Shown in pieces: positions 3,666 to 62,249 of a stretch of 64,000 bases of DNA. A program made the translations under genes and the position numbers. Under the pieces are notes generated by a model. That model saw nothing but the letters and a program-made list of their open reading frames with translations, did no database searches and was not told the origin of the DNA. Origin of the DNA: Planctomycetota bacterium (lineage in GTDB: Bacteria > Planctomycetota > UBA1135 > GCA-002686595). The first letter of the stretch is position 1, and the number at the start of each line of letters is the position of its first letter. The stretch lies in NCBI GenBank assembly GCA_016709875.1, contig JADJLZ010000009.1:218824-282823 (forward strand), in the 5' to 3' direction.

Positions 3666-5033
3666 TCAGTGAGCCTCGATGGCTCCCATGTCCAGGTACG
3701 TGCAGAAGCTGCACGCCGAGGAACCCACACCGGAATCGCCGACCGCGGTCTGATCGAAGAGCCTCTTTGATCCGACGGCATCCTCAGGGAGCGCTTCGGT
3801 TGTATCACCGTCACCATCGACGTCCAGGCTGTCGGTGGGCAGCAGACCGTAGTTGGCAGCATCGACGCAGAGTGAGGTGATCTTGAGCCTCAGGTTCCCG
3901 AGGCCGTGGTTGGAGAAGACGGGATCGAGGGTGATGTTCAACCCCGGGTATCCGCCCCCTTCGATGTCGGTGTAGTCCACCGTCACCGCACCCGCACCGC
4001 CGATCGGCGCCCCCAGTGCGAAGTTGTTGAAGTACAGAATCGAGTTGTACACCTCCGCCTGGCACGAGGTTCCGACGTACAAGGCCTGGCCGTCCGCGCT
4101 CGCGTTCCCCCGGTTGTCGGCCAGCGTGCAGTTCACGATCCGAGAGCTGGCGCCGGAGCTGGATGCGCCGACTTCCAGCGCGATCGCGCCTCCGGTGGAG
4201 GCGATCGAGGTGAAGTTGTTCCAGAAGACGCAGCTCGTGAAGTCGAGCCGGTCGCCCGAGTTGAATCCCGTGAGAAATACCGCGCCTCCGTCACCGGTGG
4301 ACACGCTTGCCTTGAAGCTCGAATCGACGACCTCACCGTGAGCGAACTCCGCGTAGATCGCGCCGCCCAAGTAGGCCTTGTTGTCGTTGAACTCGCAGTT
4401 CTTGATCTGCAGGAGTCCAGCAGCCGCGCTCATGCCCTTCGCGGCGTAGATCCCCCCACCGAGGTTCGTCAGAGCGACGGCCGCGTAGTTCGACGTCAAG
4501 AAGCAGTTCGCAAGTCCCACATCGCTGCCGATGGCCTGGATCCCGGCCCCGGAGACGTTCGCTCCGGTCGCGTAGCCGTTGCTGATCGCGAGGCCGTCGA
4601 TCACGACGCCGGGAGAGCCACCCGTGCCCACGACGTTCTGGATGTCGAGGACGTGCAGCGCGTTGTCGGTGTAGATGGCCAGGTTCCCGATGTTTCCATC
4701 GAGGATCGTGTTCGCGAACGAGCCCAGGCGCCCCTGAAGGGTGAGCTCCGTCCCCTTGAACCCGCCGTAGAACGAGAGAGGCCTGTTCACCACGAAGCCG
4801 GCGTTGGTGGCCGGCCGGTACGTGCCCTCGGCGATCCAACACGAATCCCCTGGCGCTGCTGCCGCCAGGGCGACGTTGAGGTCGTTGTAAGCCAACGCCC
4901 AGGTTGTGCCATTGCCGCCTGCTGCTGCGGCGACGTTCACATGGATCACCGCCGCCAGCGCGGGCGTGATCGTGAAGCAGACGAGGGATGCAGCGAGGGC
5001 GAGCGAGCGCCGAGCCACGAAGCGAGCGATCAT
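3666..5033 (-). CDS. Secreted right-handed beta-helix protein ('choice-of-anchor Q'-like C-terminal region), copy 1
   Basis: Signal peptide MIARFVARRSLALAASLVCFTITPALA. Repetitive G/N/A-rich beta-helix turns, NSILYFN, DYTDIEGG, and a C-terminal D-x-D-G-D ... GAIE motif. GGAGGA RBS 5 nt upstream of the ATG. Confidence 0.7.
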   Translation of the reverse strand: MIARFVARRSLALAASLVCFTITPALAAVIHVNVAAAAGGNGTTWALAYNDLNVALAAAAPGDSCWIAEGTYRPATNAGFVVNRPLSFYGGFKGTELTLQGRLGSFANTILDGNIGNLAIYTDNALHVLDIQNVVGTGGSPGVVIDGLAISNGYATGANVSGAGIQAIGSDVGLANCFLTSNYAAVALTNLGGGIYAAKGMSAAAGLLQIKNCEFNDNKAYLGGAIYAEFAHGEVVDSSFKASVSTGDGGAVFLTGFNSGDRLDFTSCVFWNNFTSIASTGGAIALEVGASSSGASSRIVNCTLADNRGNASADGQALYVGTSCQAEVYNSILYFNNFALGAPIGGAGAVTVDYTDIEGGGYPGLNITLDPVFSNHGLGNLRLKITSLCVDAANYGLLPTDSLDVDGDGDTTEALPEDAVGSKRLFDQTAVGDSGVGSSACSFCTYLDMGAIEAH

Positions 5034-5192
5034 GGGTTCCTCCGGAAGATCAGTGGTCGGCGGGATGCATCCGAGCCCGGGGGTCGGGAAGGGACCCCCG
5101 CCGAGAAATCGAAGCGTGACGGTTGCCTCCCCCCCCCCCTGTCAAGCGTATGCTCCAAGAAATCGCTGAGATTCCCACAGCGCGGAGGCACC

Positions 5193-7059
5193 ATGAAGTT
5201 CTCGATCCAGGCTCTCGCAGGTTCCCGCTCGAACGCCGCCCCACGGCGATCCCCAGTCGACACGAAGCGACTCATGCTCGCGTTCGGAGTGGCCGTGCTC
5301 GCGGCGACATCCTCTGCCCAATTGACCGAGCGCGTGAGCGTGACCTCGACCGGCGCACAGGCTTGGGGTGGCGGCGAAATCCCCACGCCCCCTGCGAATG
5401 CAGTGTCGGCCGATGGCCGCTTCGTGGCTTTCATGTCGGTGTCGCCGGACATCGTTTCCGGGGACACGAACAACAAGTGGGATGTCTTCGTGCGCGACCG
5501 GCTCAACAGGACGACCGAGCGCGTGAGCGTGAGCTCGAGTGGCGGCCAGGCGAACGCACACTCGGGCATCTGGGGCCTGGCAATGAGCCGCGACGCGCGT
5601 TTCGTGGTATTCCAGACCGACTCGACCAACCTCGTCACCGGAGGCACGAATGGGGCGTGGCACATCATTCTCCGCGATCGCCTCAACGGGACCACCGAGC
5701 TCGTCAGCGTCGATTCGAACGGAGTGCAGGGAAACGGTGGTTAGCTTCCATCCCGTCGTCACGGACGACGGGCGTTACGTAGCCTTCTCCAGCCTTGCGT
5801 CGAACCTCGTGCCTGGGGACACGAACAACACCGCAGATGTCTTCGTGCACGACCGGGTCACGGGTGCGACGGAGCGCATCAGCGTTTCGAGCGGTGGCAG
5901 CCAAAGCAACGGAACCAGTGAGTTTGCAAGCATCACTCCAGACGGTCGATTCGTTTCGTTCGATAGCACCGCCACGAGCCTTGTGCCCAGCGACACCAAT
6001 GCGCACTACGACGTCTTCCTACGCGACCGACTCACGGGCACGACAGAGATCGTGAGCCTTGGTTCGAATGGCGCGCAGGGGAACGGCGACTCGTGGGAAT
6101 CCACGTTGTCGACAGACGCCCGCTTCATCGCCTTCTCGAGCAGGGCCACAAATCTGCTGCAAGGAGACTCGAACGGCACCTTGGATGGCTTCGTTCGCGA
6201 CCGGCTGAGCGGAACAACCGAGTGCACGAATGTCTCCACCGCGGGAGTCCAGGGAGACCACGGCGCCACGTACTCCGTGATTTCGCCGGACGGCCGATAC
6301 GTTGCTTTCCGGAGCGATTCGAGCAATCTTGCCCTTCCCGCTCCTTCTGAGGGCATCTGCATCCGCGACCGTCAGCTCGGCACGACCGAGTATGCCAGCT
6401 ACTGCTACGACGGCTCGATCCCCAACGGAGAGACCGATCCGCCCTCGATCTCTCCCGACGCACGCTTTGTCGTTTTCCGCAGCTCCGGGACGAACCTCGT
6501 CCCCAACGACACGAACGCGAACACCGACGTCTTCCTCTACGACCGCTACGCAAGCTCGTTCACCAGCATCTGCGATCCGCTCGACGCCGCGGTGCTCGAC
6601 TGCCCCTGCAACAACCCGCCCGCCTCTCCCGGCCGCGGTTGCGACAACTCCTCCGCCACCGGCGGCGCCATGCTCGCCGCGAGCGGCGTCGCATCCCTCT
6701 CCGCGGACACGCTCGCCTTCAGCACCACCGGCGAGAAGCCCAACGCGACCAGCATCCTGCTCGAAGGCGACAGCGTCCTCGCCACGGGCGCCCCGTTCGG
6801 CCAAGGCGTGCGCTGCGTCGGCGGAACTCTCCGCCGCCTCTACACCAAGACCGCCCACAACGGAGCGGTCCTCGTACCGGACCTCGCCGCCTCCGATCCG
6901 ACGGTCTCCGCGCGCTGTGCGCAGCTCGGGGTCGCGATCACCCTCGGGGAGACGCGTGTCTTCCTCGTCTACTATCGCGACCCGCTCGTGCTCGGAGGCT
7001 GCGCCGCCACCAGCACCTACAACGCGACCCAGAGCGGTGCGGTTCTGTACGCGCCGTAG
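5193..7059 (+). CDS. PD40/TolB-like beta-propeller repeat protein with Cys-rich C-terminal domain; reading frame interrupted by an apparent +1 frameshift near 5736-5744
   Basis: Repeats of the form S..G.Q.NG.S..PSIS.DGRFVAF.S.ASNLV.GDTN...DVF.RDR run 5270-5744 in one frame and continue at 5746 in the next (...VQGNGG* / VSFHPVVTDDGRYVAF). GGAGG RBS sits before ATG 5193. An alternative start at ATG 5274 gives the MLAFGVAVLAATSSAQ signal peptide. Confidence 0.6.
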
Positions 7060-44920: not shown

Positions 44921-44976
44921 TCACTCGAAGCGCTTGAGCTCGCGCCAGCAAAGCGTCGTACCCTGGTCCGAGGTCC

Positions 44977-44989
44977 GGGGGGGGGGGGG
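44977..44989. repeat. G13 homopolymer tract in the intergenic region upstream of the ECF sigma gene
   Basis: Read directly: ccg ggggggggggggg ccggcg. Confidence 0.9.
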
Positions 44990-45441
44990 CCGGCGCCGGG
45001 GTCGCGCCGCAGGGGGCGGGCCGGCGGCGAAGACCCCTCCGCGCGTCCCAGCGTTGGCGGGCTCGGCGGGCGTGCCGCGGTTGCCAGTGCAGGTAGAAGG
45101 CGTCCTCCACAGAAACGACCAGCTCTCCCTCGCCTTCCCCGCGGCAGTTTCCGCCAGGACCCCCCGCAACGGTCGGGTGCCAGACCAGGCTGGGCAGCCA
45201 CTCCGGCCCTCACGGGTCCGTTCGGTACTCCTGGGAGAGAGATGCATCGGCTGGGTCACGGGAAGCTCCTTCGAGTCTCTGGGGACATCTCCCTGGACGC
45301 CAGGGGCGGCCTTCGCGCGGCAGTGGAGTCGAAGATTCCGAACGCGGACGACAGCTCGCCCCTGCCCCTCCCAGCGCGGCCGGCCACGAATTCCGCGCTT
45401 TGGTGGTAGCTTCGACCCGCCGCCGGCACTCTGCACCGCGA

Positions 45442-48113
45442 TGGACCCGCAACCCGTGCGCATCGAGGAGCTCCTGGCCCACGCCGGCTGGGTGCGCAAG
45501 CTCGCCGCACGCCTCGTGCGCGATGCCGGGACGGCCGACGATGTGGCGCAGGAGGTCTGGGCCTACGCGCTGCGCTCGCCGCCGCGCACGCGCTCGAACC
45601 TGCGCGCCTGGCTTTCCGCCGTGGTGCGCAACTCCGCGCGTTCGCTGCGCCGCGCCGAGGAGCGCAGGAGCCAGCACGAAGCGGCCGCACCCGCGCGCGG
45701 AGTCGAACCCGCCGCCGCCGAGCTCGTCGAGCGGGCGCACCTGCACCGCGATCTCGTCGAACAGGTGCTCGCGCTCGACGAGCCGCACCGCTCGATCGTG
45801 CTCGCGCACTGGTTCGAGGGCCAGAGCCTGGCGGAGATCGCGCGGCGGCAGGGGCTGAGCGCGCGCGTCGTCGCCGCGCGTCTCGACGCCGCGCACGAGC
45901 GGCTGCGGCAGCGCATGGACAAGTCCGCCGGCGGACGCGAGGCGTGGAGCCTCGCCTTCGTGAAGTGGACCGAACCGCATCTCGCGACCGCTGCGGCGGG
46001 CAGCGCCGGAACCGCCGTTACCTTGGGAGGACTCGTCTTGGCCAGCAAGCTCGTGATCGCAGGTGTCGTCGTGGTCGTCGCCGCGGGGCTGGGATGGATG
46101 CTCTGGCCGCGCGAACAGCCCTCCGCGCCCGTGGCGGGTGTTCCGGTGGCGAAGGAGACGCATGCTGAGAGCCTCGGATCCTCGCCCGATGGAGTCGCGC
46201 AACCGAACGTGGGCAGTGCGCGCGAGGCGCTGAAGCCCGAGAGCTCTGCGGGCGCCGCCTCCACGGCCGCTCCCCGCGAGCGCTGGATCGTCCGCGGCCA
46301 CGTCCACGGCGCACCCGGCGGACGCGCGGCGGAAACGACGCTCACAGCGCAATTCGTCGGCCAGTACAACATTCAAGAGCATGCATCCGCGAACGCGGCC
46401 AACGACGGTTCCTTCGAACTCGACGTGACCGAGATCCGCAAGCGATGGCTGCGCGACGCGGCACCATCCGAACTCATTGTCACTGCGGATCACCCCGTGT
46501 GTCTCCTCGCCGAAGCTCGAGCGGCCTACGGGAGCGCCACCATCGATCCAGACCCCAACGCCGATCCGCATGCCGTGTACGAGTGCGACATCAGTCTGAC
46601 CCCGGGGGCTGTCGTCACAGGGCGTGTCGTGACACCGTCGGACTGGAAGGCGCCGCAAGACTCCGGACGCGAACCTCACCGCCCTTGCGCCGGGATCTTC
46701 GATCTCGTCGCTGACTCGGCTCACCCTGAGGGTCTCAGCCACACGAGTTGCGATGAGCAGGGTCGCTGGACTCTCCGCGCAAATCATGGTGGGCCGCTGC
46801 TCGTGATCGCCTGTGCCGAGGGATTGCGGCCCGCATCGATCCAGGTCGAGGCCAGCGTCGGCACGTCCACGGACGCGGGCTCACTCGCACTGGGTCCCGG
46901 CGCAACGGTCTCCGGCTGGGTGGAGCGCGGAGGCAGTCGGGCCGGCCCCGGACTACGGGTCGCGGCGAGACTGAAGCTGGAGCGTTACGAGGGTCGCCGC
47001 GATATTCGGTCGGGGTACGGGGCGGATTTTCTGCTGTATCCGATCGCTGGAGCCTTCGAGCACTCTGTCCTGGGGGCGGAGACTCGAGCGGATGGGAGCT
47101 TCGAAATCCACGGGCTCGCGGCGACCGACTACGAATTGCGTGTCGACTCCGTGCCCGGTCTGCGCATGTACGTGGGCGGTCGTGACCCAGGCGAGCTCAC
47201 GGTGCACGCACCTCAGGCCGGAGTGGTCCTCGCAGGTGTACCCCCGTCGATCACCCTCCGGGCGACAGTCAACGGCCGCCCTCCGACGGACCCGGAACTC
47301 GACGGTGTCGTCATCGACCTCGTGCCGCTGTCGAAGGAGTCCAGCAAGGGCGAAATCGATCTCACGCGAAGCAAGGCTGGCTACGGCGTGCAGCTCCTCC
47401 CCGGCGTCGCCTACGAATTGCGCGTCCGACCTGGCCGGTACGTTCCAACCGTACTGCCCATAGGGGCGCTCGAGTTCGGAGAGCAACGCACGCTCGTCCT
47501 CGACCTGAAGCCACAGGATCAGGTCAGCACGCTCGTGCTGCGCTTCGCTGCGAAGCCCCCCGAACAGCTCGCCAGAGTGCGGATCGCGCTCCTCGATCCA
47601 TCCGCTTCGGACGACGAGGGAGCCGTGTGGCAATCGGTGAACCGCTCGGACCAGGGCACCTTCGTCCTGCGTGATCTCTCGCCAGGGACCTACCGCGCCC
47701 TCGTCCGGACCTACAGCATCTGGGACCGAGTCGAGATGACGTACTACCTGCCCTGCGAGTTCCCGCTCACCCTGGAACCGAAAGCAACCGTCGAGCGCGA
47801 GGTTCCCCTCGAACTCGGAGCGCGATTGCGCATGTCCGCCAAGGATGAGCGCGGCGGGTACGTGCGCGCTGCGGTCGAGTTGCGCGACGCCTCGGGCGCG
47901 AAGCTGGCCACCGATTTCTACTGCGTCACCGCGGGCATGCGCTACGGCTGCGGCTGGTATCTCTGCGAGCAGGGCCCCAACGATCACCCGCCGCTCCCTG
48001 CAGGACACTACGAGTTCACGCTCAAGGCCGAGGGCTTCGCCACCGAGGTCGTGCCCGTCGATCTCGTCGCCGGCGAGTTGAAGACGCTCGACGTCGTCCT
48101 GCACCCGAAGTGA
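45442..48113 (+). CDS. ECF sigma-70 factor fused to a transmembrane helix and a large periplasmic region of carboxypeptidase-regulatory/prealbumin-like beta-sandwich repeats (sigma/anti-sigma-like fusion)
   Basis: One uninterrupted frame. Sigma region 2 (DDVAQEVWAYALRSPPRTRSNLRAWLSAVVRNS), then region 4 (IVLAHWFEGQSLAEIARRQGLSARVVAARLDAAHERLRQRM), then a TM helix (LGGLVLASKLVIAGVVVVVAAGLGWMLW), then about 600 aa of repeated G.V..-type beta-sandwich modules (…VRGHVHGAPGG…DGSFEL…; …VSGWVERGG…DGSFEIHGLAATDYELRV…). Confidence 0.6.
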
Positions 48114-48117
48114 ACCG

Positions 48118-48160
48118 AAAAAGGTCGCGGGCGGACGCCGGAGACCGGCATCCGCCCGCG
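48118..48160 (-). terminator. Rho-independent terminator downstream of tRNA-Glu (possibly bidirectional with the ECF gene)
   Basis: GCGGGCGGAcGCCGG-aga-CCGGCaTCCGCCCGC hairpin, followed on the minus strand by CCUUUUUCGG. Confidence 0.5.
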
Positions 48161-48163
48161 TGG

Positions 48164-48241
48164 ATGGTGACGCCATGGGGATTTGAACCCCAGTCGCCAG
48201 GATGAAAACCTGGTGTCCTAGGCCTGGCTAGACGATGGCGC
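48164..48241 (-). tRNA. tRNA-Glu (anticodon UUC)
   Basis: The reverse complement folds as a cloverleaf: GGCGCCA acceptor, D-arm GTCTAGCCAGGCCTAGGAC, anticodon loop UUUUCAU (UUC), T-arm GGGTTCAAATCCCC, encoded CCA. Confidence 0.75.
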
Positions 48242-48318
48242 CACGTGTTCGATTCGCCTCCGCAGAGCCTCGCGGCGCTTCGGAGAGGGCAGAAAGGTAG
48301 GGTCCGCACCCCCCACTG

Positions 48319-55517: not shown

Positions 55518-55593
55518 TGGTGACCGCGGAAGGGCTCGAACCTTCGACCTGATGATTAAGAGTCACCTGCTCTACCAACTGAGCTACGCGGCC
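55518..55593 (-). tRNA. tRNA-Lys (anticodon CUU)
   Basis: The reverse complement GGCCGCGTAGCTCAGTTGGTAGAGCAGGTGACTCTTAATCATCAGGTCGAAGGTTCGAGCCCTTCCGCGGTCACCA folds as a cloverleaf with anticodon loop CUCUUAA. Confidence 0.85.
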
Positions 55594-55663
55594 TCGTTCC
55601 GAAAGATGGGCGGAGAGGATAGCAACTGCTCCGCTCCAGGCAAGCATCCACCTCGCGGAGAGG

Positions 55664-55739
<76 letters not shown>

Positions 55740-61759: not shown

Positions 61760-62249
61760 GTCTCAGCGAGCCGATCGATCTGGAACTGCGGGGCTCTCAG
61801 GAAGCCTCGCCCAGCAGTTCCCGGTGGGTGGTTCTGAACGCACCCCTCTTCCCAACAGCTGCAAGCCACCAGTTCACCAAGGGGCAACTGCACCGCCGTT
61901 CGATGCGATCCGCAGACGAGCGGGATCGCATTCGGCGAGGCATGGAGCTCCGCGCGGAAGGCGTTGGAGGCAAGGTTGGAATCGGGAAGCGATCCAGCAC
62001 GGGCGCACGCTACCAGCGAGCGGCGAGGATGTGGTGTAAGGGGGGGGGTAAGAGATGCTTGCCAGGTTGCACAAATGGGCGTCTGCATCGGGGCGCTCAT
62101 CGGCGGGACGAGGAGCGGATCGCCTGAAATCCAGGTCCCCTGAGCTGGGTCGTCGGGTAGTGTGAACCGCAGTTGGTGGAGGCGGCAAGCCGACCAAGCT
62201 CGCTGCACCGAAACGCACTCAAGGCCTCGCAAGCACGCAGGAGCTTCCC

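Follow-up and report, generated by a model that had tools for sequence, protein, structure and literature searches.

A stretch of 64,000 nucleotides from a planctomycetotal metagenome-assembled genome (assembly GCA_016709875.1, contig JADJLZ010000009.1, positions 218,824 to 282,823, hereafter called the window) contains a gene in which a sigma factor of the extracytoplasmic function (ECF) type, a single transmembrane (TM) segment and a large periplasmic ectodomain are encoded in one uninterrupted reading frame. The deposited protein MBK7644359.1, annotated as 'RNA polymerase sigma factor [Planctomycetota bacterium]', is identical to its product. The parts of the gene and the features around it are listed in Table 1.

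The fusion gene and the domains of its product

A preliminary description of this DNA had given the frame correctly with 890 codons but had placed its start at 45442; the true start is the ATG one base upstream, at 45441. Beyond this codon the frame stays open without a stop as far as 44934. The G+C content at the three codon positions (GC1/2/3) is flat in this upstream stretch with 0.70/0.70/0.77, compared to 0.74/0.52/0.81 within the gene, and the stretch from 44934 to the ATG is thus regarded as non-coding. The same start methionine is found in all eight full-length orthologues (8/8). Codon periodicity is unbroken through the sigma, TM and ectodomain parts, and the window as a whole has a G+C content of about 70%. 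Within the gene, GC3 was 0.92 in the sigma-coding part (45441-45950) versus 0.78 in the ectodomain-coding part (46281-48110); for the adjoining Pro_CA_2 gene it was 0.94. The contrast between the two parts may be due to a different origin or a different constraint of the modules.

The N-terminus (residues 1-163) is a complete, cytoplasmic ECF sigma domain. Pfam Sigma70_r2 was matched at residues 13-75 with 39.8 bits (gathering threshold 24), and Sigma70_r4 at residues 104-157 stayed just under its threshold of 24.1 with 21.8 and 19.1 bits. The NCBIfam model TIGR02937 (sigma70-ECF) covered residues 14-159 with 54.5 bits at a cutoff of 42.9. SigL of Mycobacterium tuberculosis was matched end to end (residues 14-159 versus 22-170 of 177, E = 1.7e-8), SigK and RpoE aligned with the sigma domain as well, and the structural neighbours of the modelled N-terminus are ECF sigma factors. 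With regions 2 and 4 present and regions 1 and 3 absent, the protein belongs to the ECF (group 4) members of the sigma-70 family. It is not a member of the Rhodopirellula/Verrucomicrobium sigma-70 family TIGR02989, for which it reached 49.2 bits at a curated cutoff of 124.55. The canonical sigma motifs are intact, and the sigma regions showed the highest column identity of the whole protein among the orthologues, namely 0.87 (region 2) and 0.84.

Region 4 ends at about residues 160-163 and is followed by GGREAWSLAFVKWTEPHLA and then by the TM segment, so that the interval between them measures only about 25-30 residues. No Pfam family was detected in residues 161-280 at E<=0.1 and no anti-sigma family in the whole protein at E<=1. 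Pfam families that would mark a sigma/anti-sigma hybrid (FecR, ZAS/zf-HC2, RskA or similar) were not matched behind region 4, and the protein passes from there into the membrane with no anti-sigma domain in between. The interval is occupied by a juxtamembrane segment in which W169, A172 and W176 are invariant among the orthologues and lie as a hydrophobic stripe along one helix face. An AlphaFold2 model, built on 64 homologues and with a mean predicted local distance difference test (pLDDT) score of 85.8, contains helices at residues 166-177 and 179-186 with pLDDT falling from 91 to 74. The juxtamembrane segment is accordingly modelled as an amphipathic helix. Its motif G[GDE]RxxW was found at the equivalent place in 37 of the 64 relatives from the first search round and, among 121 fused proteins, in about half.

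A Kyte-Doolittle scan of the whole protein revealed exactly one hydrophobic segment at residues ~189-222, a region modelled at low confidence. G196, G197 and K203 are invariant there among the orthologues and the cytoplasmic flank is slightly positive. The TM helix is oriented N-in/C-out. That the ectodomain lies outside the cytoplasm follows from homologues consisting of anchor and ectodomain only (see below), which have basic N-termini and cytoplasmic tails of only ~1-15 residues. Behind the membrane, a linker leads to the ectodomain; pLDDT is below 50 across residues 222-274, and the linker has the lowest column identity of the whole protein, 0.47.

In the model, the sigma domain is helical and residues 281-890 are all-beta, forming a rigid periplasmic rod of six beta-sandwich domains with pLDDT mostly above 90. 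CarboxypepD_reg (Pfam PF13620) reached 50.1 bits for the whole protein (threshold 32.3). Domain by domain, the matches were weak for domains 2, 3, 5 and 6 with 14-22 bits each and missing for domains 1 and 4. Given the score above the gathering threshold together with the fold, the ectodomain is counted among the CarboxypepD_reg/transthyretin-like beta-sandwiches. Its structural neighbours are Gram-positive pilins, CnaB domains and the TIE protein of Bacillus anthracis, further alpha-2-macroglobulin MG domains, the transthyretin-like domain of carboxypeptidase D and the N-terminal extension of SusC. The ectodomain has conserved cysteine residues and an invariant C-terminal loop, CGWYLCEQGPNDHPPLP; its column identity (0.59-0.73) is intermediate between those of the sigma regions and the linker.

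Sigma-70 regions 2 and 4 of the ECF type, a TM helix behind region 4 and tandem carboxypeptidase-regulatory repeats had all been proposed in the preliminary description as parts of a single polypeptide. The Pfam and NCBIfam scans and the SigL alignment bear out the sigma regions, the hydropathy scan agrees with the single TM segment, and one polypeptide with an ECF sigma domain, one TM segment and about 610 residues of periplasmic beta-sandwiches is confirmed. The repeats, however, are better seen as a fixed six-domain module that also occurs without a sigma domain.

Table 1. Positions of the fusion gene, its parts and other features in the window.
Feature	Position	Strand	Remarks
Sigma-TM-ectodomain fusion, complete coding sequence	45441..48113	+	ATG start, 890 codons and stop
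Sigma region 2	45477..45665	+	residues 13-75; Pfam Sigma70_r2
Sigma region 4	45750..45929	+	residues ~104-163; Sigma70_r4 just sub-threshold
Juxtamembrane segment	45930..45998	+	residues 164-186, motif GGRxxWSLAFxKWTEP; about 25 residues
TM segment, single	46005..46106	+	residues ~189-222; Kyte-Doolittle scan
Pro/Ala/Ser-rich disordered periplasmic linker	46107..46280	+	residues 223-280
Ectodomain, six transthyretin-like/CnaB-like beta-sandwich domains	46281..48110	+	residues 281-890
Two-part motif GAATTCC-N11-GGTAGCT (candidate promoter)	45388..45411	+	-54 to -30 relative to the ATG
G13 tract	44977-44989		within window-specific spacer
Hairpin	48126-48160		16-bp stem, 14 G-C pairs; 13 nt past the stop codon of the fusion gene
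tRNA-Glu(UUC)	48165-48242	-	
Two adjoining tRNA-Lys genes	55518-55739	-	CTT and TTT anticodons

Orthologues and integrity of the fusion

Besides MBK7644359.1, seven full-length orthologues with 879-931 residues and 47-65% identity were found in independent metagenomes. They align without a break across the junction of region 4 and the TM segment, and two additional partial orthologues are likewise continuous at this point. In the first search round, the sigma domain was followed by a long extension in 64 of 64 matches. At least one hydrophobic segment was present in 63 of these 64, mostly with the first one soon after region 4, beginning at about residue 170-260. The fusion family comprises more than 100 further members with many paralogues, and relatives in GTDB species genomes belong nearly all to the Planctomycetota. 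Within the window itself, no other member of the fusion family was found.

The same layout is present in the complete genomes of Engelhardtia mirabilis Pla133 (850 residues) and Saltatorellus ferox Poly30 (894 and 1030 residues, encoded in tandem). All three proteins exceeded the Pfam thresholds for both sigma regions, and all but the 894-residue protein of S. ferox did so for CarboxypepD_reg as well. The nearest cultured relatives belong to the deep-branching Saltatorellus clade, in which the metagenome-assembled genome may be placed as well, judged by protein similarity only; this clade has a G+C content of 67-70.5% and was reported to be particularly rich in ECF sigma factors (bioRxiv 10.1101/817700). 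Some paralogues bear PDZ domains within the extension, which fits a sensing or protease-related role of the periplasmic part. The preliminary description had not recognised this architecture, and no description of it was found in the literature; it is not a one-off, however, but belongs to a family of more than 100 members in an ECF-rich planctomycete clade, cultured strains included.

Genuine two-gene versions with separate sigma and membrane-protein genes were considered and rejected. A search with the sigma part alone returned short proteins, of which the close matches are either fragments at contig ends or frameshifted copies with Arg-rich junk tails, and frameshift-like tails were also seen in the metagenomic relatives P0213, P0217 and P0229. 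At one locus (L090:2575-5182), a 197-residue sigma open reading frame (ORF) and a 676-residue ORF overlap by 17 nt; the TM region is shortened and split between the frames. As the second ORF is left without any membrane anchor, this split is a lesion (pseudogene) or an assembly error and not the ancestral state. Another locus (L091) was too fragmented for interpretation.

An artefactual fusion, that is, a sequencing or assembly error in which a frameshift joined separate sigma and membrane-protein genes, might be suspected in a metagenome-assembled genome with split or truncated related entries (L090, P0213, P0217), but it is effectively refuted and retains next to no probability: the reading frame passes through the junction in the eight independent full-length orthologues, the two partial ones and the completely sequenced cultured strains, codon periodicity is not interrupted there, and the split copies are lesions given their junk tails and the missing TM segment in the second ORF of L090. 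The comparison with orthologues, by which the preliminary description had suggested to recognise such an artefact, was thus decided in favour of the fusion at every orthologous locus.

Exchange of modules and surroundings of the gene

The ectodomain alone (residues 281-890) was searched against 1.84 billion representative proteins. This led to 310 matches at E<=1e-3, 140 of them at E<=1e-10. Most matches span all 610 residues in a single stretch, so that the six domains form a defined unit rather than an array of generic repeats. Among the best 150 of the 310 matches, 62 have a sigma domain (complete ones with 765-955 residues), 49 are anchor-only proteins of 580-743 residues with a basic N-terminus, a signal-anchor helix, a linker and the ectodomain, and 39 are fragments or have no detectable anchor. 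No sigma gene was found next to the anchor-only genes at the four loci examined, and with cytoplasmic tails of such short length the anchor-only proteins cannot be anti-sigma factors.

The counterpart is given by protein P0011 (742 residues). It is 74% identical to the query over residues 1-177; the similarity stops there, where the juxtamembrane motif ends, and the P0011 ectodomain has no detectable similarity to that of the query. This identity boundary and the anchor-only proteins together place the join behind the juxtamembrane helix and ahead of the TM helix. The protein therefore consists of two recombining modules, namely, sigma domain with juxtamembrane helix and TM segment with ectodomain.

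Pinto and da Fonseca (2020) outlined for planctomycete ECF sigma factors that a duplicated sigma2/sigma4 module captures an adjoining gene as C-terminal extension (PMC7671368). The present gene shows both halves of the pattern as outlined there. Theirs is a general evolutionary account, which in this outline does not extend to the present ectodomain, the juxtamembrane motif or the Saltatorellus-like clade.

Further observations were made on the arrangement of these genes. The two sigma-fusion genes of S. ferox Poly30 lie side by side (L054:7971-13872), and two anchor-only ectodomain genes adjoin each other on a metagenomic contig (L088:3198-7292). The family appears to have expanded by local duplication. 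On two independent contigs (L086:2403-2693 and L087:952-1242), an ORF of 96 residues without Pfam match ends exactly at the start of the anchor-only gene P0069 and may encode a small partner protein of it.

Upstream of the fusion gene, only the last ~50-55 bp before the ATG are conserved in related loci. They contain a two-part motif that is a candidate promoter and that is possibly recognised by the sigma factor itself. TGGTAG(C/G)T is invariant across six orthologous loci; 9-11 nt ahead of it lies a T-rich element, which reads GAATTCC in the window. Both parts together were found a single time in the 64-kb window and a single time in each orthologue locus, in every case ahead of the fusion gene. 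An expectation-maximisation (EM) search in 39 family loci yielded CGGATT(T)C as the family-wide form of the T-rich half, with a log-likelihood of 56.7 versus 15.5 ± 1.8 in shuffled sequences; in 27 of these loci it lies 44-60 nt ahead of the start codon (p = 3e-12). By eye, the downstream half-site appears to vary by sub-clade (GGTAGG, CGACG, CAACAC), as would be expected if each sigma factor recognised its own promoter. A scan for sigma-70-type promoters gave no sites. In one sub-clade of paralogues (L012, L009, L019), an 8-bp inverted repeat, CACACCGC...GCGGTGTG, lies between the CCAACAC element and the start codon, within the region of about -45 to -15 from the ATG, and could form a 5' hairpin or act as an operator.

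The gap before the fusion gene measures 520 bp in the window versus ~60 bp in the orthologous loci. It includes a window-specific spacer of ~470 bp (44921-45390) that separates the fusion gene from the Pro_CA_2-like gene and that has no Rfam match, no stable fold and neither coding periodicity nor convincing terminal repeats. Except for the last ~50 bp, the upstream spacer has no homologue in related loci, and the 520-bp region folds less stably than shuffled sequence (z = +1.75). A role of this region as regulatory leader was therefore rejected. The G13 tract and the long non-coding leader pointed out in the preliminary description do exist, but they have no counterpart in the orthologous loci and showed neither an RNA family nor a fold nor a coding signal. 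The G13 run may be a homopolymer that is sensitive to assembly; other long homopolymers in the window are C11 and G9 (5129-5139 and 62040-62048, respectively).

Synteny with one orthologue locus (L081) extends over at least 10 genes with 61-91% protein identity. The common order is a XerC-like recombinase, the Pro_CA_2 protein, the fusion gene and, on the reverse strand, a TIM-barrel protein and Trm112, and continues from there. In L081, a gene for a 495-residue membrane-fusion protein of the HlyD family (4159-5646) starts ~50 bp 3' of the fusion gene, and a co-directional ORF begins at equal ~50-bp spacing in two other loci (L082 and L083). No homologue of the HlyD-family gene was found anywhere in the window, where the 3' region of the fusion gene comprises 48114-48318. 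This gene could be a lineage-specific member of the regulon. The hairpin behind the fusion gene probably terminates converging transcripts.

Relation to known systems and possible mode of action

ECF sigma factors with TM-containing C-terminal extensions are an established class, to which IutY, ECF52 and the planctomycetal ECF57 belong (PMC8999054). With a conserved TM segment and an extracytoplasmic domain C-terminal to region 4, the present protein falls into this class. IutY from Pseudomonas putida (ECF243), whose sigma part is released by Prc and RseP, is the only experimentally characterised case (PMC8999054, PMC10202637). It likewise has an ECF sigma domain covalently joined to a TM helix and a periplasmic domain. 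However, IutY carries a full FecR-type anti-sigma domain before the membrane where only ~25-30 residues without any anti-sigma family are present here, and it acts in TonB-dependent cell-surface signalling with an ectodomain unrelated to the present one. Proteolytic activation was also predicted for ECF48, ECF52 and ECF53 (PMC8999054, PMC10202637). These actinobacterial proteins, such as SCO4117 of ECF52, are similar in having 1-2 TM helices and an extracytoplasmic portion within a long C-terminal extension, but they come from another phylum and contain a zinc-finger (ZAS-like) anti-sigma domain that was not detected here, whereas the present ectodomain consists of six transthyretin-like beta-sandwiches.

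ECF57 (formerly ECF01-Gob) comprises planctomycete ECF sigma factors with large C-terminal extensions and several copies per genome. It has been described with WD40-like repeats and with a conserved cysteine in each of sigma2 and sigma4, the pair linking the two regions (PMC8999054; bioRxiv 10.1101/2019.12.11.873521). No WD40 family was matched in the fusion protein by Pfam at E<=1, and the model shows tandem beta-sandwiches and not a propeller. Neither the query nor most family members have a cysteine within residues 1-170. The protein is thus set apart from ECF57 by both features. In a wider sense, ToxR/TcpP and pro-sigma-K are comparable as DNA-directed regulators that are retained at the membrane and can be cut by a site-2 protease (PMC10202637). 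ToxR and TcpP, however, are winged-helix activators and not sigma factors and act while tethered, and pro-sigma-K has an N-terminal pro-sequence and no ectodomain. A literature search for ECF sigma factors combined with carboxypeptidase-regulatory domains returned nothing relevant. No description of the ectodomain, the juxtamembrane motif or the anchor-only counterparts was found either, but key censuses of planctomycete ECF sigma factors may already catalogue the group. The overall design is known in outline, and what appears to be new is the form with this ectodomain and without an anti-sigma domain.

We infer that the gene product is a membrane-tethered ECF sigma factor which senses and responds in one polypeptide, by sequestration followed by regulated proteolysis; this reading is held with moderate confidence. 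Regulation by proteolytic release or by intramolecular occlusion, as envisaged in the preliminary description, is plausible. The tethered sigma domain would be kept from productive use through its sequestration at the membrane, possibly aided by the conserved amphipathic GGRxxW...W helix if it folds back on region 4. On sensing an envelope cue, the ectodomain would allow a first cleavage in the exposed linker or in the ectodomain itself, upon which a site-2 protease would cut inside the Gly-containing TM segment. The freed, soluble sigma factor could then guide RNA polymerase to its targets, which probably include its own conserved upstream motif, resulting in positive feedback. The disordered linker and the invariant GG in the TM segment are circumstantial features consistent with a two-step proteolysis.

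Several points weigh against this scheme. The locus has no linked protease gene, and the sequence does not reveal a cleavage site. As there is no anti-sigma domain, the tethered form has no evident inhibitor. The juxtamembrane helix would stay on the sigma factor after site-2 cleavage, and extra trimming would be needed if it were inhibitory. Moreover, the upstream motif does not have the AAC/CGT signature that is usual for ECF promoters (PMC8103513), its half-site spacing is shorter than usual, and it may be bound by another factor.

The lack of an anti-sigma domain and of a linked protease gene would also suit a sigma factor that is active while tethered and requires no proteolysis. By analogy with ToxR/TcpP/CadC, RNA polymerase would be recruited to membrane-proximal DNA after a conformational or oligomerisation change of the ectodomain had relieved, via the TM segment, autoinhibition by the juxtamembrane helix. 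This helix is kept with the sigma module across differing ectodomains, which fits a built-in switch, and ECF sigma factors of the planctomycete T. immobilis were recovered from detergent-soluble fractions (PMC8567305). Yet the ~25-30 residues between region 4 and the bilayer are tight for a holoenzyme clasping region 4 on the beta-flap, and a disordered periplasmic linker of 58 residues is a poor conduit for conformational signals. No sigma factor is known to be active at the membrane. On balance, activity of the tethered form appears unlikely.

It is very doubtful that the fusion is for the most part a by-product of evolution that arose when a duplicate of the sigma module came to lie ahead of a signal-anchored periplasmic rod protein and captured it. 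The structural or adhesive role of the rod in the envelope would then be dominant, and the sigma domain would be inert or a permanently sequestered sink. The free exchange of both parts would speak for it, as the ectodomain occurs with a signal anchor alone in 49 of the best 150 of the 310 matches, at four loci with no sigma gene nearby, and as P0011 bears a near-identical sigma module on an unrelated ectodomain; the proposal also agrees with the capture model as outlined for planctomycetes (PMC7671368). But the sigma domain is the most conserved part among the orthologues, its canonical motifs are intact, and the fusion is retained in many paralogues and in orthologues with as little as 47% identity, which argues for selection on the sigma function in the fused state.

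A distinct signalling design is similarly improbable. An anti-sigma-free ECF sigma factor would be controlled by the tether and the juxtamembrane helix alone, and the rod would serve as a periplasmic ruler or tension sensor of envelope geometry or outer-layer attachment. For this purpose, a rigid rod of six domains, at a rough estimate of several nm per domain, would reach across the periplasm with the invariant loop at its tip. If true, this would be relevant to the shape-shifting Saltatorellus clade, and the anchor-only paralogues would be non-signalling competitors or structural counterparts.

Regulated proteolysis of a tethered sigma factor, like the alternatives to it, is open to experiment, with family members available in the cultured strains E. 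mirabilis Pla133 and S. ferox Poly30 and the conserved candidate promoter as reporter. A family without anti-sigma domain could reveal the minimum that is needed for holding a sigma factor inactive at the membrane. It also provides a worked example of how planctomycetes build sensors, with one sigma module on differing ectodomains and one ectodomain with and without a sigma factor.

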